A model generated the notes under the pieces. The model saw nothing but the letters and a program-made list of their open reading frames with translations. It was not told where the DNA came from and searched no databases. A program made the position numbers and the translations under genes. From Yuukianura sp. NJ FZ-2021 (lineage: Eukaryota), in the NCBI GenBank assembly GCA_046563655.1, contig CM102285.1, positions 4,402,001-4,466,000 of the forward strand: a DNA stretch of 64,000 bases, in the 5' to 3' direction. Shown one piece after another: positions 26,202-64,000 of this stretch. Within the stretch, counting starts at the first letter, position 1; the number at the start of each line of letters is the position of its first letter.

Positions 26202-29200
26202 TTAATCCTCATCCGCATTGTATATGGGGTCAACGTGCCAAGAAAAGTAGTTTGATGCAATAAGGAGCCATGGCCAGTAGATACTGAGGAAAACCAAAAA
26301 CGTCAAAAAAAATATGAGCAAAGCGTACTTCTCAATCCAAAGCGCCGTTTGTCTCCGCTGCCGTCGCTTCCTTTTTGTAACCTTTGCTGTAGCCCGTTTC
26401 CTCAAATTTCGGAGCCTTACAAAGAAGCTTTCGTTCAAATTTACTGTTGGTTGTTTGGAATGGGTGTCGATTTCCTTAGGTGGTTCAATTACTTCTCCAT
26501 TCTAAATCACAATAATTTTGAATTATTCAACTCGTCTCATCATGTTTCAAAAGCAAATGACCTCAAAACACAAAATAAGTTCGTGAATATAATTTTTTGC
26601 AAACGAACGGTTTCGCAGAATAAGATTGGTAGAATCTGTTTTTTTTTTGTGAAAGGCAAAGTAGTTTTGTGTTAAAATTATGGTTATATAAAATTAGCCT
26701 AACCTCTAACGTTTCCGGTTCATCTTCGTCATTGTCATCACCGTGCCTCATGAAAACCAATATTGTGAATTCCAGTAACGTCGAAAAAACAAAGAAGATG
26801 CACGCGACCTATAACATAGTATGATGCTTTTCAAATATTTTGAGTACCATGGGCCATAATCGGTGAAAGGTTACCAAATTTAATATTTCCTTTATACTGG
26901 ACTTACCATCCAAACGTCTATGGCCTTAATATAACTGACCTGAAAATCAAAACAAGAATTGCAATGCCACAAGCTTATACAGTATACATGCTGAGTGAAA
27001 GCTTACAATTGGAGTGCTTTCTCTGACAGATGCAAACATGGATGTCAAAGTGAGGAGTGTAGTCATTGCAACACCGATTCGAGCCTCCACCATTCCCACC
27101 GGAATGAGAAAGCAAAGCCACGTAATGACAATAAAAAACAAACTGGGGAGGTACGTCTGAAAAAAAAAATCCTTTTCTAAAAGTTGAATGCTTAAATTTA
27201 AAAATTGACGGATCTTGAAATTTTTCTTACCTGTATCATATGGTATGACAGACTTCTTCTGGCTAAAATTGTAAACTGCAATGTGGTGTACTCTTCCACT
27301 AAAAGAAGCAAAAAGTTCAACAATCAATTTAAGCACGGAATCGACTTTAGCCTTTCCTGGCGGTTAAGGCCGTTCTATCAGTTAATTTTCACACTATTTT
27401 CTGAGACTTGCTTTGAATTTACTAACCGTAATTCTCGTAAATCCATTCCTGAGCTTCTTTGATTGTGTAAGACGTCATGTTTGTCACTTGAATATCAAAA
27501 TTATGCTCCCTTCTGTCCATTATATAGACTCCTTTAGGAGTTAACCACGATAGTTGCATTTCTTTGTCAGTGTGAGAATCTGAGAAAAAAGTTAACTTCA
27601 TTAATTGGATTACGGAAAAGTAAAATATGCAACTCACAACTTCTGATTTTTATGTCACACTTCTGCGTATCGGCTGAAATGTACAAAAATAAAATTTCTC
27701 ATTTTATTCATCACTTTTAAGTAGAATTTAATCCGAGACCGCAATGTTTTCAATTTTATATTACCCGGATAATAGGCAAATTCCATTTCACAATCAATGG
27801 TTGTTGTTAATCTTCAAAAAAGAAAACAACATTAAATAAAATATTAAATATTTTTAATAAAAAAGTGATGTGTTAAAGTATAACTTCACAAAACAGTACA
27901 AAAAGTACAAAAAGTACTGCCTCTGCCTTACCGTGTTGAAAAGATTACAAGTCCCACAGGATTGAAGCGCAATTTGATTGGTTTTACAATTATTGCAGGT
28001 CGTTCAAGAGTTACCAAATTTTCTTTAAAAAAAACCAAACTTTAAAAATTGCGAGTAAGAGTTAATAACACAAATCGGAAAGTTATAGAATTGGTGTTTA
28101 CCGATAAACACATCTGGTTTCCAGATATATTGCAGGAAGGCTGGATCCATTGTTCGAGTAGAATTAACAAGCTCTTCATCTGTGCCATTGAAATGTTTGA
28201 ATAAGTGCCGATTGGCTTCAGAAATGACAATGTCATACCACATTACAGTCAAGTCCATCTCAGTGATGTACTGTCTTCCGGAAGATTCTTCCATGGAAGA
28301 CGTCTTCCGGCTTCATTCTTCCGACTTCCGGAAGATTTGAAGACGGAAGACTGGAAGACGAAAAATTCTCTGGAAGACGGAAGCCGGAAGATTGGAAGAC
28401 GAAAAATTCTCTGGAAGACGGAAGCCGGAAGACTGGAAGACGAAAATTTCTCTGGAAGACGGAAGCCGGAAGACCGGAAGACGAAAAGTTCTGTGGAAGA
28501 CGGAAGATGGAAGACCGGAAGACAAAATATCCTCTGGAAGACGGAAGATGGAAGACCGGAAGACAAAATATCCTCTGGAAGACGGAAGATGGAAGACCGG
28601 AAGACAAAATATTCTCTGGAAGACGGAAGAGTGGAAGACAAAACAGCCTATGGAAGTCGGAAGACTATATGACAAAACACCCTCTGGAAGACTGGAAGAC
28701 GGAAAATTCTCTGGAAGACGGAAGACGGAAGACCGGAAGACAAAAAGTTCTCTGGAAGACGGAAGCCGGAAGACCGGAAGACAAAAAATTCTCTGGAAGA
28801 CGGAAGCCGGAAGACCGGAAGACAAAATATTCTCTGGAAGACGGAAGCCGGAAGACCGGAAGACAAAACATCGTCTGGAAGACGGAAGATGGAAGACCGG
28901 AAGACAAAATATCCTCTGGAAGACGGAAGATGGAAGACCGGAAGACAAAATATTCTCTGGAAGACGGAAGACGGAAGACTGGAAGACAAACCAGCTGTTT
29001 CTCTTCGGAAGACGTGAAGACTGGAAGACGGAAGACAGTACAAGACTGGTCCATCTCCATTGTAATTTCCTTCGCAGTAAGATAAAACCAAAGTTAGAAA
29101 ACTCGTAAATGACTCAACACCAGCAATCTCCTCAGGACAATTTTAAGCCAAGTAATTACTATAACATCAATTTTTGAAAAGGTCAACGTAAATGCTTTCG

Positions 29201-32719: not shown

Positions 32720-34242
32720 CCGTAAAATTCAAACTTTTGGAGGGAATAGTTTCCGTTATTTTTACTCTCTTTCCTCCTTTTCTCAGAACTTATGTTCTGA
32801 CCTTACCCTTTCAGTTTTAGTTGTCTGGTATTTTGTATAATACATTTAATTAACTAAAATGCCAAAAGTGAAAAGTCCGACAGTGTTTACAAAGAGAAAA
32901 ATACTGGCAGAAGTTGGCAATATCCCGCGAAAAGACATCTGTGCCAAATATTCTATGCATAAGTCGACACTGAACCTACTGATTAAGAAGAAAGATGAAC
33001 TGGAAAACATCAAGGGGAATCCAAAAGTTAGTAAATTTTTTGAATATACGTAGTTTTACATAATCTACGATAGTTATTGCCGATGATTTTTTTTTTGATT
33101 TTGTTTGGCCAATGTTCCTCTTGTTTTTTTTTCAGAAGAGGAAGTCTGTTGTTCATGGGAAGGTAAAAGCACTGGATGAATTACTTATGGCATGGATTAC
33201 CGAACAACGAGCAAAAGGAATTCCGCTTTCCTGTCCACTAATTAAGGAAAAGGCTCGAACTCTGGATCCAAATGGGAACAAGAAATTTTCTGACGGTTGG
33301 TTCGATAGTTTTCAGAAAAGGAACAACCTATCCCACAGGCGAATTTGCGGTGAGGCACTTGACGTTGACCTCGAAAACCTGGACAACTGGAAACGGAACG
33401 TTTTAGTACCCACAACGCAAAACTACAATGATTCGGACGTTTTTAACGCTGACGAGTCAGCGCTTTTTTTAAAAAAACTACCCGGCACGACGTTTGAAGT
33501 GAAAGGTGGGAAGGTCGCTTTAATTTGTTATTCTTTAATTTCTCAGTTACGTTCAACCTAATTCGTGGGATTAAGTTTAATGTCTAATTTGATTTTAATT
33601 CATATTTAATTTTATGCTTTTTTTTTGCATAGGAAAAAAGTGCTTTGGCCTGAAAGCTTCAAAGGAAAGAGTGACCTTCTTAGTTTGTTGTAACAAAACT
33701 GGCGACCAGATACAGCCGCTGCTAATTATCGGGAACTCGAAAAATCCGAGGTGTTTCAAAAACACTAAATTTACCTCAGAATTTACGTATCGTTCGTCAA
33801 AAAAAGCCTGGATGACACGGGAATTGTTTTCGGAGTGGCTGGCAGCGTTAAATTCAAACATGGCAGACCAGAAAAGGAAGATACTTCTCATACTGGACAA
33901 TTTTAGCGGACATGAGGTTGAGGAGGAATTTTTCCCAAATTTACAACTTTTATTTTTGCCACCCAATACGACTTCAAAAAGTCAACCACTGGATTCCGGA
34001 ATTATTCAGTCCCTGAAACAACATTATTGTTCCCAAATTGTTAAAATTTTGGATTCTGGTAAAGTTTTGAGTGACGTGAAACTTTCCGATGGGATAGAAA
34101 CGCTTTGTCAATCGTGGAATGATGTCAAAAAAGAAACAATTGTTAATTGTTTTAGAAAAAGCGAGAAAACTGGTTAAGCGCCTCAATTACAAATCAAATC
34201 AATAAATATGCGCTCGCCTCGTTACTTTTTGAAAATTTACGG
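32720..34242 (+). mobile_element. Tigger/pogo-family DNA transposon, apparently full length
   Basis: TA|CCGTAAAATTCAAA ... TTTGAAAATTTACGG|TA imperfect TIRs enclosing a transposase gene. Confidence 0.85.
32859..34177 (+). CDS. Tigger-type transposase (CENP-B HTH + DDE_1), exons 32859-33026, 33136-33505, 33633-34177 (~360 aa)
   Basis: The spliced frame is open. Motifs FSDGWFDSFQKR, FNADES, KERVT, KAWMT, LILDNFSGH, FLPPNTTSKSQPLDSGII. Confidence 0.9.
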
Positions 34243-46138: not shown

Positions 46139-46258
46139 ATGCCAAGAGCACCCGGGGTTCCCAGGCGGTCACCCATTCAAGTACTAACCGGGCCCGACGT
46201 TGCTTAACTTCAGTGATCGGACGAGAACTGGTGCTTTCAACGTGGTATGGACCTTGGC
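46139..46258 (-). rRNA. 5S ribosomal RNA
   Basis: GCCAAGGTCCATACCACGTTGAAAGCACCAGTTCTCGTCCGATCACTGAAGTTAAGCAACGTCGGG...AGTACTTGAATGGGTGACCGCCTGGGAA...CTTGGC, followed by a T-run (Pol III terminator). Confidence 0.97.
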
Positions 46259-46540
46259 AGGAGGATGTTGGAAATAACACACAGATGAAATAACAAATTG
46301 AATCAAACGACAATTTTTACCAGCATTCACATTTTTGCAAATCTTTTAACAAATCTCGCTACACTAAACTCAATTAACAACTTCAATTAACTCAATCATT
46401 TAAAATATCCGCAATCCGAACCTGGCGAAACTCCCGACTCTAAATTTCTAAATTAAAGAAGACTTTACTCGAAAATCTTTCTCTTCGCATCTCTTTACAC
46501 ACTTTTTTTTAACGTTTTTTGCTCTTTGTTAGATTGTGGT

Positions 46541-46556
46541 GGCCCTTAAAAGGGCC
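46541..46556 (-). promoter_or_regulatory. Histone 3' stem-loop (H2B)
   Basis: GGCCCTTTTAAGGGCC-ACCA followed by AAAGAGC downstream element. Confidence 0.95.
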
Positions 46557-46589
46557 GTTGGTTTAACTAGGCTCTGGTGATGTTGAGAT

Positions 46590-46964
46590 TTACTTGGAAG
46601 AAGTGTACTTGGTCACAGCCTTCGTCCCTTCAGACACTGCGTGTTTAGCCAGTTCTCCAGGCAGCAGGAGGCGCACAGCAGTTTGAATTTCGCGGGAAGT
46701 GATGGTGGTACGCTTGTTGTAGTGCGAGAGTCGTGAGGCCTCTGCTGCGATTCTTTCGAAGATGTCGTTGACGAAAGAGTTCATGATGGACATGGCTTTG
46801 GAGGAGACGCCAGTGTCTGGATGAACTTGCTTGAGGACCTTGTAGATGTAGATGGCGTAGGACTCCTTCCGCTTCATCTTCTTCTTCTTCTTGTCGCCCT
46901 TCGAGATGTTCTTCTGTGCCTTCCCTGCCTTCTTCGCTGCTTTTCCGCTCACTTTTGGTGGCAT
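46590..46964 (-). CDS. His2B: Histone H2B
   Basis: [14 protein letters not shown]...[21 protein letters not shown]...TKYTSSK. Confidence 0.99.
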
Positions 46965-47732
46965 CTTGCTTGGTTTCCGGTTGTCGGAGAGAGAGAAAAT
47001 CGAGAGACTTTGTGAAGTGAATGAGTGGATTCTGTTTTGTCTCCCCTTTTATATGGACCCGAGAGGAGTAGAATTCGAGATGATTTTACTCTTTTGGAGT
47101 TGGGGGTGGGGAAATGCATGGGGTGGCAATGGACAAAATACACAGAGGGACCACCCCAACTCCACCAAACCCCCGTGCCAAAAAAACACAAAAGAGCGAG
47201 CGTCGTCATCGGCGTCAGATTTGCCCCCTCTCTCTCCAAATTCGAACGCTTCTCCGTTTTTCCCGGATGAAGCGGAAAATTCCCAAAAACTATTGAAAAA
47301 ACAAGGTGAGAAAAACGAAAAAACAGAAAACGATGATGCCTAACGAAAAATTAAATGAAGAATTAAAAACCGAAGTTTAAGATGATTGATGACATTGTAT
47401 GTAGATTCAGCTTATTTTCAAATTTCGTAGTGCATGAGGTCAGGCGAGCTTAAAAATTTCGGATAGAAGAGACCAGGGTGAGAGTTCATAATTTGTTTTT
47501 GAATGAGTATTACGTCAGTGGAGTTTATTGTTCAAATTCAATTGACATTTTGAGTGGAACGGAGGTCAAAGTTTTTTTTTTATTTCATTGAGATTTAAAC
47601 TGAATTCGAACTGTGTAAAATTCAAAGTGAACACTCGGAAGTAATCAAATTTTTTAAAATTAAATTAACAGTGTTCTGAATTGTATTTTTGTAATTTATT
47701 CTGGTTGGTTTTAGCTCTTTGTAAATTTTGGT

Positions 47733-47748
47733 GGCCCTTAAAAGGGCC
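47733..47748 (-). promoter_or_regulatory. Histone 3' stem-loop (H2A)
   Basis: GGCCCTTTTAAGGGCC-ACCA followed by AAAGAGC. Confidence 0.95.
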
Positions 47749-47788
47749 GTTGGTCATAAATAGAAGTAGAGTTGATTTGTGTAGATTT

Positions 47789-48250
<462 letters not shown>

Positions 48251-48849
48251 TTATAGGGTGGGCAGAGGTGTAAGATTTCGCTGTGTTTTACTCTTTTGGA
48301 GTAAGTTGAGAGGGGAATTTTGGGTAGCCGGAGCGACAAAAAAAATTGCAGCTGCGGGAAATTCAAATTTTTGGTGCGGACCGAAAGGCAGGTAAAACAA
48401 GACAGCCACAGGAACAAAACGAAAAGAAAAACTTAAATGACGTTTAGTTTAATAAACTTTTAATCACGATTAAACTAAATACTACTAAGTAAACTATGTT
48501 TCATCATCGCATCGCCTCTCCACTTCTGCACTGACACAATTACATCTTTGCTTGACCTTTCTCCAAACAGGATTCTTAAAAGATTTCAACAAATTCTACT
48601 CATTTTCTTTAGTTTACATCAATCAAATAAATTTTAATGGTATTTTTTGTTTAATGTAATTCATTTTATTTCATTGAACTGAAACTTAAAACTAAAAATA
48701 GCAAAACCACATCGTAGTTTGTTCAAGATTTTGAAACTAGCGGATTAAAATTGAACAACACAGCCTTTATGCAAGCGTAAGTAAAAAAAAGCTCAACTTC
48801 GAACTTAATTCTATGAATAGATTGGTTTTAGCTCTTTGTAAATTGTGGT

Positions 48850-48865
48850 GGCCCTTAAAAGGGCC
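48850..48865 (-). promoter_or_regulatory. Histone 3' stem-loop (H4)
   Basis: GGCCCTTTTAAGGGCC-ACCA followed by AAAGAGC. Confidence 0.95.
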
Positions 48866-48901
48866 GTTGGTTGGATGTTGATGTTGAAGAGGACTTTGAT
48901 T

Positions 48902-49309
<408 letters not shown>

Positions 49310-49486
49310 TTAGGCAGGAGTGCGGACCGAAGAGTGTACAAAAATCGCTGTTTTCTACCAACGAACAACGCATGACTCACTTCTTTGTATAACTGTTCTT
49401 CCCCTCAGCCCCTCTTCTCTCGCCTCATTTTGAAGGGGACTTCCGAAGCCACCCAAAACTTTTTTTTGCTCTTTGTAAATTTTGGT

Positions 49487-49502
49487 GGCCCTTAAAAGGG
49501 CC
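49487..49502 (-). promoter_or_regulatory. Histone 3' stem-loop (H1)
   Basis: GGCCCTTTTAAGGGCC-ACCA followed by AAAGAGC. Confidence 0.95.
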
Positions 49503-49538
49503 TTTGGTTAATATATCTAGAGATGTGTGGGAAATAAT

Positions 49539-50306
49539 TTACTTCTTCTTGGCAGGGGCCTTCTTTGCTGCTGGCTTCTTCGGGGGAGCCTTTTTCGATT
49601 TAGCAGGAGCCTTGGTGGGTTTAGCCTCAGCCTTTGGTGGGGCAGGAGAAGCAGCTTTTGGTGGGGAAGCAGCCTTCTTTGGCGCAGGGGCCTTTTTAGG
49701 TGGGGCAGCTTTTTTCGGAGATGCCTTTGGTGGGGCTTTCTTCGCTGCTGCAGGAGCCTTCTTGGGGGGAGACTTCTTCGGTGGGGAAGCGGCCTTCGCA
49801 GGAGACGCTGCTTTCTTTGCTGCTGGTTTCTTAGCAACGGCGGTTTTCTTTGGAGACGCAGCTTTCTTGGTGGCAGCAGCCTTTGGCTTGGAAGCCCCAC
49901 CAGCTCCAGGAAGTTTGAAGGAACCGTTGGCACCTATACCTTTGACCTGCACAAGGGTACCAGCAGCCACGGCGGACTTGAGGAACTTCCGGATGAAGGG
50001 AGCTAATTTCTCAGCATCCACCTTGTGATGGTCAGAAATGAACTTCTTAATGGCCTTAAGGGACGACCCACCACGCTCACCCAGGCCCTTGACAGCTTCA
50101 GTCACCATGATGGCAGTACTCGGATGGTCGGAAGACTTCTTCACTGCTTTCTTCGGTGCGGGCGACTTCTTCTCCTTCGGGGCTGGTTTGGCCTTGGGCG
50201 TTTTCGGTTTTGTGGCTGCAGGACGACCTCGACCTTTGCCTTTGGCAGCAGCAGTGGCTGGTGCTGGAGCAGCCTCGGCTTCAACGGCAGTTTCAGAGTC
50301 GGACAT
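49539..50306 (-). CDS. His1: Histone H1 (255 aa)
   Basis: Globular domain HPSTAIMVTEAV..ERGGSSLKAIKKFI..KGIGANGSFKL and a K/A/P-rich tail with SPxK motifs. Confidence 0.98.
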   Translation of the reverse strand: MSDSETAVEAEAAPAPATAAAKGKGRGRPAATKPKTPKAKPAPKEKKSPAPKKAVKKSSDHPSTAIMVTEAVKGLGERGGSSLKAIKKFISDHHKVDAEKLAPFIRKFLKSAVAAGTLVQVKGIGANGSFKLPGAGGASKPKAAATKKAASPKKTAVAKKPAAKKAASPAKAASPPKKSPPKKAPAAAKKAPPKASPKKAAPPKKAPAPKKAASPPKAASPAPPKAEAKPTKAPAKSKKAPPKKPAAKKAPAKKK

Positions 50307-52142
50307 TTTCGAAATTTTTAATTTAAAAATTGAATTTGTGAAGCAGAATTTCGATTTTGCAAAATGGCGTTTGAATAAGTGGTTGAGCCGAGGCTGCTGT
50401 GGTGTTGATCCAAGGTGCGACCGTCGGAGCAGCCACTTCAAAATTTCACTCTTCCGAGCACCAAAATCCCACTCTCCCTCATCCTCTTTGTGTTTTCTTT
50501 TCGCACTTTTTCAAAATTATCTCCGTTTGGGAAAACGTTTTTTGGAAACTTTTTGAAGCCACTTGATAGCTCATACACTTAGCTATCATCTGATTTTTGT
50601 GCCATCAAAATCCACCGATCCGTTAAAAAGTTAGGCGGGATTTGCGAGGAGCCTATCCCCCGATTTCCAAAATTTTTGGCAATTTCTTCCCATTTCTAAA
50701 AAATTTGGACAAACTTTGGAGTTTGATTTTTTGACTGGGCATAGCGGGGTCCTTGGCCTTCGTATTGGTTTTGATTTCATGAAATTCCGTTCATCCGTTG
50801 TTTCGTAATTTTGATTTGAGTGGAGGCAGAAGACACGATTTGCTCAAGACAGAAACTGCCTATTCTCAACTTTGACCCCGAATTATACTCCGCTCCAAAG
50901 TAACCCACACAAATTTTGAAACCACCGCTCCATTTCTGATCAAATTCTGAACAGAGAAATTTTTAAAATTTTGGGGCGTGGCTTAAGTGTAGTTTACTGG
51001 TGGTAAGTATTAGCATGTCCTGAGTTACAAAGTTCATTTTTCATGGGAAAAGTCCATTCAAGATAGGCAGAGTGGAAGAGTTGCAGAGTATTTCAACAGA
51101 AACTGCAACGTAGCTTATGTTAAAAGCTACTAAGTAGTGGCCCAATCTTAGCTATCCTTACCTAAACTTAAGTCTACACTTAAATTAATGTTAAATTTTC
51201 AAAAAAAAAAAAAAAAACATAAAAAATTTTTCATTCAATTTTTCATAAAATTCAAACTTCATTTCTCTTATTTCTGCTACAAGTTGCATTTTAGTTTTGG
51301 AAATTCAAAAGTTCGACTCTTCTGCATCGTCTTCGTCACCCCTTTTTACATTTTTCAAAACTTTGAATGTGAAATTGTCAAAAAATTGATACCACTTTTT
51401 CAACTTTGATACGAGATAATTCAAAAAGTTAAACTTTTTTTTAAATTGATTTTTTTTTAAATTTTGAAATGTTAGTCCTTTTGATGCAAATGGTCGCTAG
51501 TTGGCGCCAAAATGAATTTGACATTTCTGTAAAGTTTTCGAGCATTTGACTTGAGGAAAACAAAAAAGTCCCCGAGCAGCTTGTCATACTTCTGTACCAC
51601 AAAATAAATTTATAAATTTTGTAATTTAACTAAACTCGTCAGAATTTGTGATTTAGGAAAAAATAAATTTCGAAAACTCTTGATTTTACGAGGTTGGGAA
51701 ATGTCGTAATTGAAAAACAGTGAATTGGAAAAATTCGTCAAAATTGTATTCGAATGTACGACTAATAAAAAAGCTAATGAAAAAAATGTGTAACTGAGAA
51801 TTTACTTTTAAATTTCAAAAATACTTCACTTCAAAACGCTTGCCAAAAGTTACTGAAACAATTTGTGTTTTGCCAAAGTGGTCAAAAATTTGTTCGAGGA
51901 AGAAAGCTATTATGTATATGTATGTGCAACAACTTGCAAATGGAAAGTTACTAAAATTAAAAGTTACTCACTAAAATTTACCAAAATTAGATTATCAATA
52001 TTGTTAGATTCAACAATCCATGTGAATATGTCGTAAATGAAGAGTATTTTTGAATATGGCAAAATGCTTCAGCTTAGGATTAGTAAACGTACTAACTTCT
52101 AAAACGACGTTTAACTCAAGCATAACTATTTTAACTCTTGTT

Positions 52143-58385: not shown

Positions 58386-59283
58386 TAGTTGCTGGAGGTG
58401 CGGCGGGATTTTCGAGATGTGATGGACATCCTCGACTAAGTCAACGCAGTTGCTGGGTGATTCAGTGCACGGCCGGGGAAATGTTTACGTTTGAAAACTT
58501 CATTGTCCTTACGACAGTCACCACCTGCATTTTACTTACGCTCAACCAAGGTTACTATAGCAACCAATCTACAAATAGTCTACAAGAGGTTATCCAGTAG
58601 TTCGGGGTTTGCAAAAATCTTCCTTCAAACAATTTTTCCCCCCAATTTTCCCCCAATTCCTATTAAATTACATACAAATCATTACCATAGAAAGGCATGG
58701 CGACGCAAGTTTTGCAAATTATTTGAGAAAATTAAAAACATCGACTTACTGGATAACCTGGTGTAGAATAAACAATTTCTTTTTTTTTTTTTTTTTTTTT
58801 TTTTTACCCACCTTGCGCTCAACCTAGTTTTGTTGAAAACATTCAACTAATCTTACACATCATTTTAAGACCCACACTCCCAAATTATGAAAAATGTTTA
58901 GATTATTTCAATCCTGTTAATTAATTTCCGAAGGAAATTCATATTTGGCGCGTTTACCGTTTATTGTCCGTTTATTGCTCTGCTGGAAGTACTATTAAAA
59001 AAAAAGATCTTTGTGCATTCTTTTAATAGTAAAGTCAAAGAATTTGTAGTAGCATCCTGCTTACTGGGGATAAAAGGTTAATTTTATTAAGTTGATTCCA
59101 TTACACTAACTTGATTACTTTCCAGCAAGTTGAAATAATTCTAGTTTTTCCACATCCATCGTCGTACAAAATTATCACGTTTCAATACGTTCAGTGGCTT
59201 AAAAGTAATTTACTGCGTATTTCCCTTTTCAGACACTACCGGAAGTTGTTGTAGTACTAGGCTATTCACTTCTCTCTTTTTTT

Positions 59284-59706
59284 TTAACTTTTCAACTTCA
59301 AATCTGGAGGAAGGTCAGCCAAAAAGTTATACAACTTAGGTTTAAATTTATTTTCAAGCGACAATACTTGAAGTTTTTTCTTACACCAACTATTACAATT
59401 GTGATACAGTAAATTATATTTCCACTGCGGGTCATAGGTATCCACCCAAATATTCTTCAATAATTTCATCCCTTTTGCAGGATGTACTTGAATTTGCTTC
59501 GCATAATATTCGTCAATAATTTTATTATATTTTGATTTCCCTCTATACCGGTCACATATGATTTGGACCACTTTGCTTCTATCTCTTGTTAGTTCAGCTC
59601 TAATGGCAAAGTGTCCACCGTTCAAAACTCCCTCAACTACCAAGGCAGAATGCGTTCCATTGAAGTATAAATTGTTCTGCTGAGCATTTTGAATTTCTTC
59701 TTTTTT
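59284..59706 (-). CDS. Permuted papain-fold (PPPDE/LRAT-like) domain, in the -1 frame relative to the upstream NACHT ORF
   Basis: THSALVVEG ... YNLLYHNCNSWC (His before Cys, with Y-x-LL-x-x-NC motif); overlaps the tail of ORF 59637-63980. Confidence 0.65.
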   Translation of the reverse strand, partial: KKEEIQNAQQNNLYFNGTHSALVVEGVLNGGHFAIRAELTRDRSKVVQIICDRYRGKSKYNKIIDEYYAKQIQVHPAKGMKLLKNIWVDTYDPQWKYNLLYHNCNSWCKKKLQVLSLENKFKPKLYNFLADLPPDLKLKS

Positions 59707-62700
59707 GCAATAATTGTAACTGTCCATTTCTTCGTCAAGTCACACTTTTGTTCAGAGTCAGGGTTTAAAATTGAATAGGAGTAGTCTGTCACTGGTAAAA
59801 ACAGACTGCAAAATGGCTTATAAGTTTCGTTTTTAGGAGAACCCCGTGAACTATGAAATTTAAAGAGTGAGTGATCTCTTTCATTCACATATAGGGAGTT
59901 AGAAATGTCAACGTCCCTGAATGAAAGACACGAACTTGAATTTTGAGGCCCATCGACTTTCCACTGTTTGAATTTTGTCAATCTATGATCCTCAAAGTAA
60001 TGTCTTAGATTGGATGCATTGATCGTAATCCAACTTAATTCTCCCTCTTTAGTGCTCATTACAATACGAACTTGTTCAAACATTTTTTCAATTATTTGAA
60101 ATTTAAACCCCGAGTGAAATCCACGCAGGAATAATAAAGTTTTCAAGCTGATTGAGTCTAAAGTAATTAAGTCTCCATTACAAAACTGAGCTACAATCCA
60201 ATTCAATAGGTGACTGGAGCAAACTTTTACTGGATTCTCAGCATTTCGTTTGCTGTATTGTTTGACATTAACTATAAAAAAGAACTCTGATTCGCAGTAA
60301 CCTTGCAAAATCTTGTCCTGTAAAAGTATTGTACGATCGGGAGTATTATTACGGATGCAAAATTTCTTTTCATATGCAACTTTCACCATATTGTGTGTGT
60401 TTTTGTTTAGATCCCAAATGCCAAGTTCCTTCAGGTCGTTGCACTTGTTTGGAGTAATGTACGACATATTTCTTAAATTTGGATCAAAAGTGAATATCCC
60501 ATACTCAGGAGGGGCGGTAAAAGATAAATTGCAAACCAACTCTAAAAACACTTCGTCAGAACCAGATTCAACAACACTATAACACAAAAATACGTCTAAA
60601 TTTCTAAAAACAATTTTCTGATAAGTTTGAAACAACCATAATTGAGCGCTAGGAAGTCTTGACGAAAGCATTACGGGTGGTATACTCTTTATTGTAATAG
60701 CGCTGCCATTCCGAGGATTGTATCCAACCAGCCTATGTCGATCATAGGAACCAACGTACGAAATTCGAAAATACAGCACGACAAGGTTACGTGGAGTTAT
60801 TAACACCCCATATTCGTCGGATGGAACCAATAAATTATCTTCTTCGGAGTCAAATTCATGTGAAAATCCAAAGAGACGAGCAGAAATCTTTTTCAATGTG
60901 AAATCATCCTCTACAGAATAAAATTCCACGGAATACAGCCATTTTGAACTGGGCTCAACACGAAAGAAAACGCATAAACTACCATCCTCCGAGAAAAATT
61001 TCTCTAACCGATGTTTGATCACTCTCCTATTTGCTTCTGGTAAGACCGACTCTAATTTTTCAAAATGTAAAGCACTTTCAAAAATATAAACCAAATAGGT
61101 TTCTTTTTCTTTTGTACATAGAAATTCAGCAAGTGTTTCTGAATCCTTGAGTACATTGTGACATAGCACTCCGGTGTCAGCATTATACACAGCAATCGAC
61201 GTGTCGTACAATTTACCAATAAACGCCAAATTTTCAGAAATGAACCATCGGTTTTCTTTCTTTGCTACGCGATTCTCCAATTTTGTTTCCCATTTAACAT
61301 CGTACTCTTGCAAAGCAAAAACCATTTCATGAGAATAAACAATCTGCTCAGTTTCAGATTTTTGTAAAACTTCAAAATGTGTTTTCAATTTATATTTATT
61401 TTCCATAACACAAAGAACTTCTTTCTTCTTCAAGTCAAAAAAGTAAATTTTGTTCTCACTAGACAAAGTTAAAATTGAACTTCCACCATTGTATAATGTT
61501 CCGGAATGGTATATTGAAACTTCTGACAGAAAAGTTTTTCCGCGTAGGTAAGATAAATCGTCATCATGTATAGCATTTTGGGAGAAAAGTTCAAAGTCAA
61601 TACTTTCTTTATGCCGTAGAATAGGTTGCTTATTGTGTATATAAGACACATGCGCGACATTTTCCGGAACAGTGGCTACGTCAACACTTTTGCTTGTATA
61701 ACAAATAGAAACGAGAATTTGGAATCTACCGAACGGAAACCAACAGAATTTAAGGCAAGACACTGTCGCACCGTATCTGTATTTTTTGTTGATTTTGTAA
61801 ATTGACAAGAATTTTTCTTTGTCACAGAACTCCGGAACGTCATTCCGAAAAACCACAAAAAATTTGTTTTCACTTTCAGAAAGTTTAAGAGCACTCAAAC
61901 AGGAAGTCAAATACCGATTCGTCGGCTCAAATGCACCACATTTCACAATCGAATTCGAATTTAGTTCCCACCAATACTGCGGCTCAGAAACGGAAATACA
62001 CTCTGGTAGTAAGTTCTTTCCAGGTTTCCGTTTTTGATTTTCTTTAAAAAGTAATAAAATTACACAATCTGCACCTTTCATTAAGAAAGGCAAATATTTA
62101 TCACCTTCAGTGGGGAGCATGTGTTTCCTGTACTTCTTTTCAGTTAATTTTCTGATATCAATTGACTCTGCTCTTTTCAAATAAAAATCTTTATCCAACT
62201 CATAATTTTTAACATACAATTGGGTTACTCCAGGAGTATCTGTTGGTCCTTCGCAGCATACGGCGATTTGGTACAAATCTCCGGTTCTGTGACACAAAAT
62301 ATCATGTACGACGACACTATTGGAATCAAAAGATATTGGAGGAATTTGACCGAATGAACAATTTGAAAAGTTAACCCCTTGAAGTTTGCAACTTTGGAAC
62401 CACCCCTGATTCAATTCTGCATCTTTAAAATTTGCTCCACTAAAATCACTATTTCCACAAATCGAATTTCTAAAATTTGCTCCAGGAACTTGAATATTTT
62501 GAAAATTATCCTCTTCAGTCCATTGCCCAGAAAAACTATAACCACTTAAATTGAGTATTGTCAAAGCATTGGAAGCCATTAGCTGTATTCCAGGAAGAGT
62601 AGCTGACTTCCTAACAGTTCTTAATAGTAGATTTCGGAATTTTACATCCGTTTTAGCTCTACCCACAAGCATAGACAACGTACCGTGGAATTCTTGGTCG

Positions 62701-64000
62701 TTGACATTTCTTTGATTAATTGGAAAATAGACTCCATCCCTTCGTCTATTCCAATTGGAATAGTAGTTCAGAGCACTACGGAATTTTATGAAAACTTCTC
62801 TGCTCAAAAAATATTCAAACAGAGATAAATGGAGGAAACTGAAGACTTCACGATTTGAGTTAAAACGCAAAGGAGAAGAATCTCTCAGAAACAACAGATT
62901 TTCAAGTCGAGTTTCATCAGTATCCCGATCATTCTGAGGAAATAGCATTTCCTCTAAAGCTCTGTTTCTGAAAAAATTTTTACAATTGGGACTCCAAGGA
63001 ACCCACAAATTCCAATACACGGATTCACATGCTGAAATTTCACCGTTAGATACCACCCCTCCTTTGAGAAGAGCACAACGCATTGCTAAATTCTGCGAGT
63101 AACCAACCATATATTGACAAAGAACACTTCTATTTTTATAAAGGAGTTCATCATGTCCACTTTCGCGCATTCTATCAACTTGGTAATTGAACCACGCTTC
63201 CGTAAATTTATCATACAAAAGAACCTCTGTTCTACAAATTTCTTCCAACTTTTGTGTAAACTCTTCAGATACATTTTCTTTACTACTATTAGAGACAAGT
63301 TTTTCAGCTTCTATTAACTTTGGCAGCAACTGACAAAGTATAGTCAAAAGAAAAACATTCTGTGCCAATCCTTGTAATTCTGGAAGCCTGTCTAGAAACC
63401 AGTACTTGTATTCTGAATCATCTGCAGTTATTTCCCACTGGAGATGGTCCTTAGTAGTTGATTTTGTCATCATCCATGGGTCATTGACCGTTGAATCATA
63501 CTGAATGTTCTGTAGAAATAGTGGTACCTGACAAATATACTCATTAACAACATCTCGCTCTAGCGGCAAAATAGCATAACTACGTCGACGTTTTCTCTTA
63601 TCAACACCAAATATTTTTGAGATATGGATTCCGGCAGCTACATTTGTTCGGCAAAAAGTAATAGTTCGAACATCTTTAAATTCCTTACTGTCCCATTTGT
63701 TATCTTCCCACAAGTTCGACTTGACATTGAGCTCATCATATCCATCCAAAATTAAGACTAGCTCGTGTGAGCAGAGATGCAGGTACAATTTCTTAAGTTG
63801 ATCATCCTGAATTTCAGTTGGAAAGTATTTTCTGTGTTCCATAATGTAACTAAACAAGATATCCGATCTGAAACTACATGATGCTCGAGATTTCTGTCTT
63901 TCGATCATTTCCGCAACTCGGTTTAACGGAACGTACATAGGAATTTTGTGTTGAATCTCTGGTGCTGAAGAGTCGTACAACCTTTTAGTTAATTTTAGAG
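59637..64000 (-). CDS. Intronless NACHT NTPase + pentapeptide repeats + degenerate beta-propeller (NLR-like); 5' end beyond window
   Basis: More than 1447 codons, open to the window edge. Walker B LVLILDGYDEL, TFCRT, winged helix FSFLHLSLFEYF, ASNALTIL..FSG..IQVPGANF..SDFSGANFKDAEL..CKLQGVNF pentapeptides, then a long beta-rich region. Confidence 0.85.
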   Translation of the reverse strand, partial: LKLTKRLYDSSAPEIQHKIPMYVPLNRVAEMIERQKSRASCSFRSDILFSYIMEHRKYFPTEIQDDQLKKLYLHLCSHELVLILDGYDELNVKSNLWEDNKWDSKEFKDVRTITFCRTNVAAGIHISKIFGVDKRKRRRSYAILPLERDVVNEYICQVPLFLQNIQYDSTVNDPWMMTKSTTKDHLQWEITADDSEYKYWFLDRLPELQGLAQNVFLLTILCQLLPKLIEAEKLVSNSSKENVSEEFTQKLEEICRTEVLLYDKFTEAWFNYQVDRMRESGHDELLYKNRSVLCQYMVGYSQNLAMRCALLKGGVVSNGEISACESVYWNLWVPWSPNCKNFFRNRALEEMLFPQNDRDTDETRLENLLFLRDSSPLRFNSNREVFSFLHLSLFEYFLSREVFIKFRSALNYYSNWNRRRDGVYFPINQRNVNDQEFHGTLSMLVGRAKTDVKFRNLLLRTVRKSATLPGIQLMASNALTILNLSGYSFSGQWTEEDNFQNIQVPGANFRNSICGNSDFSGANFKDAELNQGWFQSCKLQGVNFSNCSFGQIPPISFDSNSVVVHDILCHRTGDLYQIAVCCEGPTDTPGVTQLYVKNYELDKDFYLKRAESIDIRKLTEKKYRKHMLPTEGDKYLPFLMKGADCVILLLFKENQKRKPGKNLLPECISVSEPQYWWELNSNSIVKCGAFEPTNRYLTSCLSALKLSESENKFFVVFRNDVPEFCDKEKFLSIYKINKKYRYGATVSCLKFCWFPFGRFQILVSICYTSKSVDVATVPENVAHVSYIHNKQPILRHKESIDFELFSQNAIHDDDLSYLRGKTFLSEVSIYHSGTLYNGGSSILTLSSENKIYFFDLKKKEVLCVMENKYKLKTHFEVLQKSETEQIVYSHEMVFALQEYDVKWETKLENRVAKKENRWFISENLAFIGKLYDTSIAVYNADTGVLCHNVLKDSETLAEFLCTKEKETYLVYIFESALHFEKLESVLPEANRRVIKHRLEKFFSEDGSLCVFFRVEPSSKWLYSVEFYSVEDDFTLKKISARLFGFSHEFDSEEDNLLVPSDEYGVLITPRNLVVLYFRISYVGSYDRHRLVGYNPRNGSAITIKSIPPVMLSSRLPSAQLWLFQTYQKIVFRNLDVFLCYSVVESGSDEVFLELVCNLSFTAPPEYGIFTFDPNLRNMSYITPNKCNDLKELGIWDLNKNTHNMVKVAYEKKFCIRNNTPDRTILLQDKILQGYCESEFFFIVNVKQYSKRNAENPVKVCSSHLLNWIVAQFCNGDLITLDSISLKTLLFLRGFHSGFKFQIIEKMFEQVRIVMSTKEGELSWITINASNLRHYFEDHRLTKFKQWKVDGPQNSSSCLSFRDVDISNSLYVNERDHSLFKFHSSRGSPKNETYKPFCSLFLPVTDYSYSILNPDSEQKCDLTKKWTVTIIAKKKKFKMLSRTIYTSMERILPW

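Follow-up and report, generated by a model that had tools for sequence, protein, structure and literature searches.

What does the long, uninterrupted reading frame at the end of this stretch of animal DNA encode, and does the protein carry its own enzyme? The stretch comprises 64,000 nucleotides of contig CM102285.1 in GenBank assembly GCA_046563655.1 (positions 4,402,001 to 4,466,000 of the forward strand) and is referred to here, at its full length, as the window. A sequence-only reading had seen in it an intronless gene of more than 4.3 kb resembling NOD-like receptors (NLRs), set among host genes that are split by introns. Both observations held: the minus strand has a frame of 1,453 codons (59637-63998), open at the window end, and the P450, Cys-loop receptor and DEAD_2 helicase genes lie in short exons. 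Our best explanation, to which we give a probability of about 0.55 as a whole, is that the frame belongs to a real protein-coding gene in an arthropod-type genome, from a family of STAND proteins (signal-transducing ATPases that contain many domains) that has no name. From N to C terminus the protein would comprise a short segment encoded beyond the window, a NACHT ATPase with its winged helix, a helical arm that has ASNALTIL at its end, a rigid beta-helix of about 13 pentapeptide repeats, a fast-diverging beta-rich sensor of ~790 residues, a conserved linker of ~90 residues, and a permuted papain-fold Cys-His-Tyr hydrolase of ~130 residues (PPPDE/TseH/CLN5-like) that would act as its output. 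The features on which this layout is based are as follows.

59637..63998, minus strand: main open reading frame (ORF), 1,453 codons; 5' end beyond the window, TAG stop at 59639-59637
63732..63761, minus strand: NACHT Walker B motif, LVLILDGYDE; the form hhhhxDG[YFV]DE is also found in relatives that pass Pfam NACHT
62802..62843, minus strand: winged-helix motif FSFLHLSLFEYFLS (FxHxSxxEYF); H390, E395 and Y396 are invariant in an eight-sequence alignment (A2)
62553..62576, minus strand: ASNALTIL motif directly ahead of the pentapeptide repeats; [AS][AGS]NAx[TS]IL in 23 of 26 sequences checked
62352..62504, minus strand: pentapeptide-repeat beta-helix (Pfam range aa 499-549)
59964..62321, minus strand: beta-rich region of ~786-790 residues, presumably the sensor and perhaps made up of degenerate WD40-like blades
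59700..59726, minus strand: conserved strand WTVTIIAKK, the last clearly homologous stretch of the main frame; relatives have W-x-V-S-x-x-x-K there
59655..59711, minus strand: frame-break interval with two rescue sites (59710/59711 and 59655/59656), from contigs of public runs
59284..59727, minus strand: ORF of the C-terminal permuted NlpC/P60-like Cys-His domain (the tail), 147 codons, in the -1 frame relative to the main frame
59650..59652, minus strand: candidate catalytic His, H26 of the tail ORF; His in 17 of 18 domains, where strand 28-35 of the model begins
59416..59418, minus strand: conserved Tyr, Y104; Tyr in 17 of 18 domains, seven residues before the Cys
59395..59397, minus strand: candidate catalytic Cys, C111, within NCNSWC; all 18 domains have Cys at this position, the N terminus of helix 111-121 in the model

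No other frame in the window comes near the main ORF in length. The runner-up among the 28 stop-to-stop frames of at least 150 amino acids (aa) has 323 aa, and at the window's base composition the chance expectation for a frame as long as the main ORF is about 4e-40. Every motif that the sequence-only reading had named is present: Walker B, the winged-helix motif, ASNALTIL, the pentapeptide repeats and H...YNLLYHNC. No second copy of the gene was found within the 64-kb window.

Is the N-terminal part a NACHT domain? Judging from relatives, ~65-105 residues, Walker A among them, are encoded outside the window. Main-ORF residue 85 pairs with residue 150 of P0001, a Logan protein of 1,606 aa, and in relatives the Walker A (GDSGSGKT) lies ~75 residues upstream of Walker B. 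The gene's own Walker A falls beyond base 64000; the closest relatives have just ~65-85 residues ahead of theirs. With an E limit of 1, Pfam NACHT (PF05729) did not match the window's own protein, in which the domain lacks its N-terminal half. P0001 scores 32.5 bits with the same family (cut-off, 26.7), and the main ORF is 34% identical to P0001 over 517 residues; against P0001 and P0142, identity is 33-34% across the first ~560 residues. Walker B and this homology indicate that the main ORF encodes a NACHT STAND NTPase.

The segment that follows is recognized directly. Pentapeptide repeats (PF00805) score 27 bits over aa 506-541 (cut-off, 20.2), and by eye ~13 units of five residues run from aa ~482 to ~551. 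A family profile matched solved pentapeptide proteins with E 9e-19; among PDB sequences, with E limited to 1, it matched no NACHT protein, solved animal ones included. A scan with NCBIfam gave weak pentapeptide matches alone, and PADLOC matched neither the window protein nor its tail. The [AS][AGS]NAx[TS]IL motif ahead of the repeats is borne by Mortierellaceae and bacterial proteins as well.

Between the pentapeptide repeats and the linker lies the beta-rich region, which is 19-20% identical to its counterparts in the closest relatives. The whole protein is collinear with P0146, whose canonical WD40 repeats occupy the same position, as they do in a second clade member, P0158. In hhalign a stretch of ~120 residues (ORF residues ~816-950) aligned with the WD40 blades of clade members with 63% probability. 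The region may consist of degenerate WD40-like blades.

We observed separately that several contigs assembled from public runs (four runs, from at most two samples, in two studies and under two organism labels) skip 399-1,503 bases of the beta region (window 60200-61704), with a common left edge at 60200/60201. Their anchors are short, at 21-30 letters, and they may reflect paralogues that differ in sensor length.

How common is the tail domain, and in what company is it found? A full HMMER search of 1.84 billion representatives returned 17 proteins at E up to 1e-3. Six of the 17 are 1,190-1,670 residues long and have pentapeptide repeats, most with a NACHT match too, and two more have WD40 repeats before the domain. 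The domain is always C-terminal among these matches, and the arrangement is the same in P0001 and P0158. The tail is fused in frame in P0001, P0137, P0138, P0141, P0142, P0146, P0147 and P0158; relatives with a fused tail are ~32-34% identical to the window protein, and the tail ORF is 36% identical to the in-frame tail of P0001. When 161 fetched proteins were scanned with a hidden Markov model (HMM) of the domain, 23 matched, all of the tail-bearing group and none from Mortierellaceae or bacteria.

The closest matches to the window's tail, P0152 and P0145, share 46% identity and the same WTVTIIAKK strand with it. Each is listed with a 3,593-base JGI contig, possibly one and the same contig; the domain is split there over two ORFs and may represent a second interrupted tail. 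The sole named match, fish protein P0151, was rejected as spurious (hhalign probability 12%, no match to the domain HMM).

Does the tail look like an enzyme? Besides the three candidate catalytic positions, Glu32, Gly33, Phe40, Asp96 and Trp114 are kept in all 18 complete tail domains, and the motif around the Cys is NC[NAVT][ST]W. The His, Tyr and Cys follow one another in the permuted order. Pfam matches stayed below threshold: PF05903 in 8 of 14 tail members (best E, 0.0022), and LRAT (PF04970), Lnb_N (PF13387) and DUF2459 in two of 14 each; P0145 also has a weak Lnb_N (PF13387) match. An AlphaFold2 model built from a 14-sequence alignment had a mean predicted local distance difference test (pLDDT) score of 71.9, with 76-90 in the core, and a predicted template modeling (pTM) score of 0.63. 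In a VIA wide search this model was aligned to 48,161 representative chains. The best match was TseH (6v98; Z 8.7, root-mean-square deviation [rmsd] 3.1, 112 aligned residues, 9% identity), with PPPDE2 (2wp7; Z 5.8, rmsd 3.8, 102 aligned, 17% identity), CLN5 (6r99; Z 5.7), Aichivirus 2A (5.0), YiiX (4.9), PLAAT4 (4.8), BcPPNE (4.6) and MARTX RID (4.1) below it. Eight of the nine top rows, Z 8.7 to 4.1, are permuted papain-fold proteins; the ninth is a subunit of a Euglena respiratory complex (Z 5.0). Next in rank were two dsRNA-virus proteins (3.7 and 3.2), the rest scoring at most 2.8. We take the 2A, PLAAT and RID domains to be permuted papain-like also. TseH, YiiX, BcPPNE, PPPDE and CLN5 are described as permuted NlpC/P60-type enzymes (PMC9012467, PMC12994826). 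These comparisons support, for the predicted structure, a permuted NlpC/P60 fold at the level of the superfamily: a papain-like fold of the C-terminal ORF, on which the sequence-only reading depended, is present in the model together with the conserved His-Tyr-Cys. One further match, to an ENTH domain when the tail profile was run against PDB sequences, was a chance motif match and was set aside.

Is the gene single? Contigs from the public runs include many pieces that are 90-99% alike, with up to six over one site, and the summed depth at 62340-62840 is 7-10 times that of the remaining gene. On these grounds the data suggest that the gene family is multi-copy in this organism. Differences between the copies carry a signature of constraint. 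Among the coding differences listed, which are the 36 best-supported ones of 406 in all (366 are not in the list), 20 are synonymous and 16 are not; the neutral expectation for the synonymous fraction is 0.21-0.28 (p 4e-6 to ~1e-3). To judge by these substitutions, the pattern indicates purifying selection among copies.

Does the copy in the window encode the tail at all? The sequence-only reading had placed the enzyme domain at the C terminus of the gene. That is where it lies, fused, in the relatives; in this assembly it is a separate, out-of-frame ORF, a break that had been overlooked. The tail and main ORFs overlap by 91 bases. Homology to P0001 follows the main frame until WTVTIIAK and continues in the other frame from HSALVVEG, and hence the break lies between 59700 and 59652. 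Near-identical contigs from the public runs lack it: one (X3, 97% alike) has a 1-base insertion between 59710 and 59711, and three (X1, X2 and X4; X1 is ~98.5% alike) have a 1-base insertion between 59655 and 59656. When the codons are followed one by one, either insertion alone fuses both frames into one ORF, and the window sequence equals both rescued variants minus the insertion. The assembled break reflects either an allele that broke only lately or a consensus into which two intact haplotypes or paralogues were mixed, the latter being possible because X1 to X3 stem from one sample.

Perhaps, then, the window copy is a recent pseudogene, in which a true 1-base loss removed the tail and other paralogues or alleles stayed intact? 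The break is present in the assembled sequence, that sequence is the expected intermediate of a compensated pair of variants, and other copies have further indels (at 59592 and 61584). However, the 151-codon tail frame is wholly open with all conserved residues intact, the one sample behind X1, X2 and X3 holds both rescued forms, so that a mixed consensus would give exactly the window sequence, and no public-run contig shown reproduces the window's version at the break. We regard a pseudogene as on the unlikely side, though well worth keeping in mind. Programmed -1 ribosomal slippage could instead read through the frame change, for a heptamer, A_AAA_AAG (59700-59706), sits in the right register inside the overlap. 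There is, however, no stable RNA structure downstream (z +1.5; folding is no worse in 190 of 200 shuffles), DNA insertions elsewhere mend the frame in near-identical copies, and relatives are fused in a single frame; we find slippage scarcely credible. A 41-base GT..AG mini-intron that would join both frames was also considered and rejected, as it would remove the conserved WTVTIIAKK strand.

Downstream, ~480 bases past the stop codon of the NLR-like gene, we noted 26 consecutive A on the strand of the gene (window 58780-58805). The short motif ggttgagcg.aag stands ahead of the run, and a similar one recurs ~250 bases further on. The run could be the tail of a short interspersed element (SINE) or the trace of retroposition of an intron-free copy.

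How might such a protein work? By analogy with other proteins of this type, the sensor region would hold the NACHT module off until a ligand binds, whereupon nucleotide exchange would lead to its oligomerization. The C-terminal hydrolase, as the sole enzymatic module, might then be activated by proximity or release. It could cut fatty-acyl, thioester or isopeptide bonds in membrane lipids or in lipidated or otherwise modified proteins, and the output would be a cell-autonomous defense or death signal. The sequence-only reading had spoken of a protease; the proteins that match best in structure hydrolyze lipids or thioesters and are not proteases. Lipids are the targets of permuted NlpC/P60 enzymes, phospholipase activity was seen for TseH, and phospholipase or acyltransferase activity is known for LRAT/PLAAT and Tox-Act1 as well as TseH (PMC12994826). 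In vitro, PPPDE1, PPPDE2 and CLN5 act as S-depalmitoylases; the group is also known for weak deSUMOylase or deubiquitinase activity (PMC9012467).

Might the C-terminal domain not be the output? It could instead serve in regulation, in self-processing or as a bait, or the protein as a whole could do housekeeping work outside immunity. The relatives have no other effector-like domain, yet NACHT proteins can signal through partners, and PPPDE-type enzymes act on protein modifications (PMC9012467) and could regulate the receptor itself. Against this, even very divergent members keep the catalytic residues almost unchanged, copy-number expansion together with a fast-diverging sensor is as seen in conflict systems, and the nearest fold match is a toxin effector. 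We consider a role other than output rather doubtful and favor the tail as the enzymatic output of the receptor.

Several results weigh against an intact receptor with a hydrolase output. The tail is out of frame in the window, and this copy may encode a protein that lacks it. X2 has a nearly palindromic 14-base insertion at 59592, inside the tail domain, and X2 and X3 have one extra base at 61584, an additional A in an A4 run of the beta region; these indels mark either broken paralogues or contig errors, and some gene copies may thus be broken, or the contigs faulty. Pfam recognizes no family in the beta-rich region at E up to 10, and internal repeats were not detected there; the "propeller" of the sequence-only reading is a reasonable inference rather than a result. 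The tail scores 14.9 bits with PF05903 (PPPDE, Peptidase_C97), below the cut-off of 29.2. Of the label "PPPDE/LRAT-like" given earlier, the permuted papain-like fold stands, in the model, but membership in PPPDE proper is not supported. Confidence in the tail model, built from 14 sequences, is middling. A Foldseek search with it against PDB and BFVD gave no match (E up to 1e-3), and re-examination of the top 1,000 Foldseek matches gave ASKHA-type partial matches alone (Z at most 4.0). Finally, it is from the architecture alone that we infer a ligand, an immune role and an effector function for the tail.

Where does the family come from? A word-based search with the main ORF gave 12 matches: P0001, ten Mortierellaceae proteins and one ENA protein. 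The Mortierellaceae proteins, which are all ten of the named matches among the 12, are 22-25% identical over ~500 residues (E 1e-14 to 1e-4). Two more came from a profile search, a Linnemannia protein and a NACHT protein from a Pseudomonadota metagenome-assembled genome, and a scan of prokaryote genomes found one Ca. Magnetobacterium gene of Metallophos-NACHT-pentapeptide-WD40 layout. These matches bear out the earlier suggestion that the architecture is shared with Mortierella-type fungi and bacteria, and the Mortierellomycota NACHT-PPR-WD40 NLRs are reported to have come from Mycoavidus (10.1101/2021.12.02.471044). Searches of metagenome contigs with P0146 gave no match; an alignment (A3) matched 362 pattern stretches among metagenome contigs and 470 among viral contigs, with no relative among either set.

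The N-terminal part of the Ca. Magnetobacterium gene (L001, 3609-6428) matches the PADLOC candidate PDC-S60 (E 3e-64). PF05903 had no match in the bacterial genome of L001.

A tree of the NACHT-to-pentapeptide segment was built from 21 rows, four rows in which just the C-terminal part aligned having been dropped, with one bacterial protein, on a long branch, as its only outgroup. All eight proteins that bear the tail fall into one clade (Shimodaira-Hasegawa-like approximate likelihood ratio test [SH-aLRT] support, 99) beside the Mortierellaceae clade. Inside it, the window protein groups with five proteins whose beta regions are degenerate (97), and the two canonical-WD40 proteins are sister to these. 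The members of the tail-bearing clade, including the closest relatives P0001, P0137, P0138, P0142 and P0147, have no organism label.

Was the family transferred from a bacterium, fungus or protist into the arthropod lineage, and expanded there? All named relatives are from Mortierellaceae or bacteria, the solved animal NACHT proteins gave the family profile no match (E up to 1), and the gene is intron-free amid intron-rich host genes. NACHT transfers of the same architecture have been described for Mortierellomycota (10.1101/2021.12.02.471044), and repeated prokaryote-to-eukaryote transfers of NACHT proteins have been proposed (10.1101/2022.07.19.500537). However, the closest relatives (32-36% identity) are those without an organism label, and their clade may be wholly animal or wholly protist. 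Arthropod NACHT proteins with WD40, ANK or TPR repeats are reported in PMC3879445 and lay outside our comparison, and the tree is rooted by one bacterial sequence on its long branch. Base composition is no anomaly either: the gene has a guanine-plus-cytosine (GC) content of 0.36 and a GC content at third codon positions (GC3) of 0.32, within the host-exon GC3 range of 0.29-0.52, and is host-like. Hence the horizontal acquisition proposed by the sequence-only reading is not established, with GC3 inside the host range and a tree that holds no animal NWD-type sequences. We consider a horizontal origin plausible, and transfer followed by expansion possible at somewhat less than an even chance. The fuller proposal, in which a horizontally acquired, expanded and selected arthropod family of bacterial/fungal-type NACHT-pentapeptide-propeller receptors has a lipid- or thioester-cutting NlpC/P60 output at the C terminus, seems to us improbable in its entirety.

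Is the surrounding DNA that of an animal? Of 155 frames of at least 75 aa, 150 were scanned, and they include P450 exons, a Cys-loop receptor exon, a DEAD_2-type helicase, an F-box ORF and a pogo-type transposase. A histone cluster, wholly on the minus strand, and a 5S rRNA gene next to it occupy window 46140-50510.

46593-47048, 47792-48250 and 48905-49309, minus strand: core-histone ORFs (frame scan)
49542-50306, minus strand: H1 ORF (frame scan)
46516-46561, 47709-47753, 48826-48870 and 49463-49507, minus strand: four metazoan-type histone 3' stem-loops, one after each histone ORF
46140-46258: 5S rRNA gene beside the histone cluster, 106.8 bits

Named best matches of the H1 globular domain are all from arthropods, at 49-76% identity (best 120 of 289). 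The host is an animal and most likely an arthropod, one to which no named record is close. Could the NLR-like gene nonetheless be contamination, or chimeric sequence attached to an animal contig? It lies at the window edge, and no public-run contig links it to host genes. Yet its GC and GC3 match those of the host, it is present in runs under two organism labels and from two studies, and the F-box gene (2.8 kb away) and the histone cluster (9 kb away) are on the same sequence; contamination is highly improbable.

Two other features of the window deserve mention. The pogo/Tc5-type transposase is spread over two frames (HTH_Tnp_Tc5 at 33064-33558 and DDE_1 at 33599-34174, E 2e-43) and has the look of a decayed or frameshifted element. 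A 41-base tandem repeat of 15.5 copies (window 28339-28987) keeps all six frames open for 250-270 codons, and these ORFs are artefacts of the repeat.

What is new here? The core NACHT-pentapeptide-WD40 architecture is already known. In the literature searched, the supplementary tables of Kibby et al. aside, we found no description of a NACHT protein fused to a PPPDE-, NlpC- or LRAT-type tail. Within that literature, a NACHT clade that has a permuted NlpC/P60 tail as a constant feature, such a multi-copy family in an arthropod genome, and its degenerate sensor region are undescribed. The tail domain is itself a rare family without a name, and one that could be defined and assayed. A multi-copy, constrained NLR-like family with an enzyme tail of its own would add a branch to animal intracellular sensing and would be a eukaryotic counterpart of bacterial NACHT proteins with C-terminal effectors; it would also offer a case of a permuted NlpC/P60 hydrolase as a receptor-controlled output. 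Arthropods are described as having few NLRs, without effector domains (PMC3879445). If both the transfer and the enzyme output were true, the family would be an undescribed animal innate-immune executioner in a phylum thought to have no effector-bearing NLRs.

How does the gene compare with known systems? The NLRs of Mortierellomycota and Mycoavidus have NACHT, [AS][AGS]NAx[TS]IL, pentapeptide and beta regions in the same order, and by this arrangement the window protein belongs with them. The Mortierellaceae proteins differ in their long N-terminal extensions (e.g., ARM_5), their canonical WD40 repeats, the lack of a C-terminal domain and their separate clade. Mortierellaceae and bacterial NLR-like families usually have an N-terminal effector or adaptor, whereas the closest relatives of the window protein have just those ~65-85 residues before Walker A. 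Animal NACHT-WD40 proteins, of the NWD1 and TEP1 types, have NACHT and then a beta-propeller-type region, the layout proposed for the window protein. NWD1 and TEP1 are not known to have a pentapeptide segment or a papain-fold tail.

The tail has likenesses to several enzyme groups. PPPDE1 and PPPDE2 (DeSI) and CLN5 have the same order of His, Tyr and Cys (PMC9012467, PMC3142127). In PPPDE1 (His38/Tyr101/Cys108) the spacing of Tyr and Cys equals that in the tail of most members, while members with an insert between the two resemble CLN5 (Tyr258/Cys280) (PMC9012467). PPPDE1 differs in having 70 residues from His to Cys, as opposed to 85 in the tail, and the tail misses the PF05903 cut-off; PPPDE1, PPPDE2 and CLN5 are stand-alone enzymes, unlike the tail of a STAND protein. 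In LRAT/PLAAT proteins (PF04970) the motif is of the NCEHF type, compared with NC[NAVT][ST]W in the tail. The TseH, Tox-Act1 and DUF4105 clades, which supply the best structural match and the weak Lnb_N matches, are used as toxins in conflict systems (PMC12994826). They are, however, bacterial secreted effectors, and TseH, at 9% identity, shows no significance at the level of sequence.

The nearest parallel in overall design is with the bacterial NACHT (bNACHT) proteins of Kibby et al. (10.1101/2022.07.19.500537). We saw no mention there of a PPPDE or permuted NlpC/P60 tail, although Table S1 may bear on this, and the window gene differs in being eukaryotic and in an animal genome. As proposed for the window protein, an effector, a NACHT module and a repeat sensor are combined in bNACHT proteins, and their sensors include pentapeptide and beta-propeller types. 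The C-terminal position of the effector, which the sequence-only reading had thought unusual, is not new in principle: some bNACHT effectors lie at the extreme C terminus after the repeats, papain-like peptidases are listed among bNACHT effectors, and Kibby et al. suggest that such C-terminal effectors may, once the protein is folded, come to lie where effectors usually do (10.1101/2022.07.19.500537).

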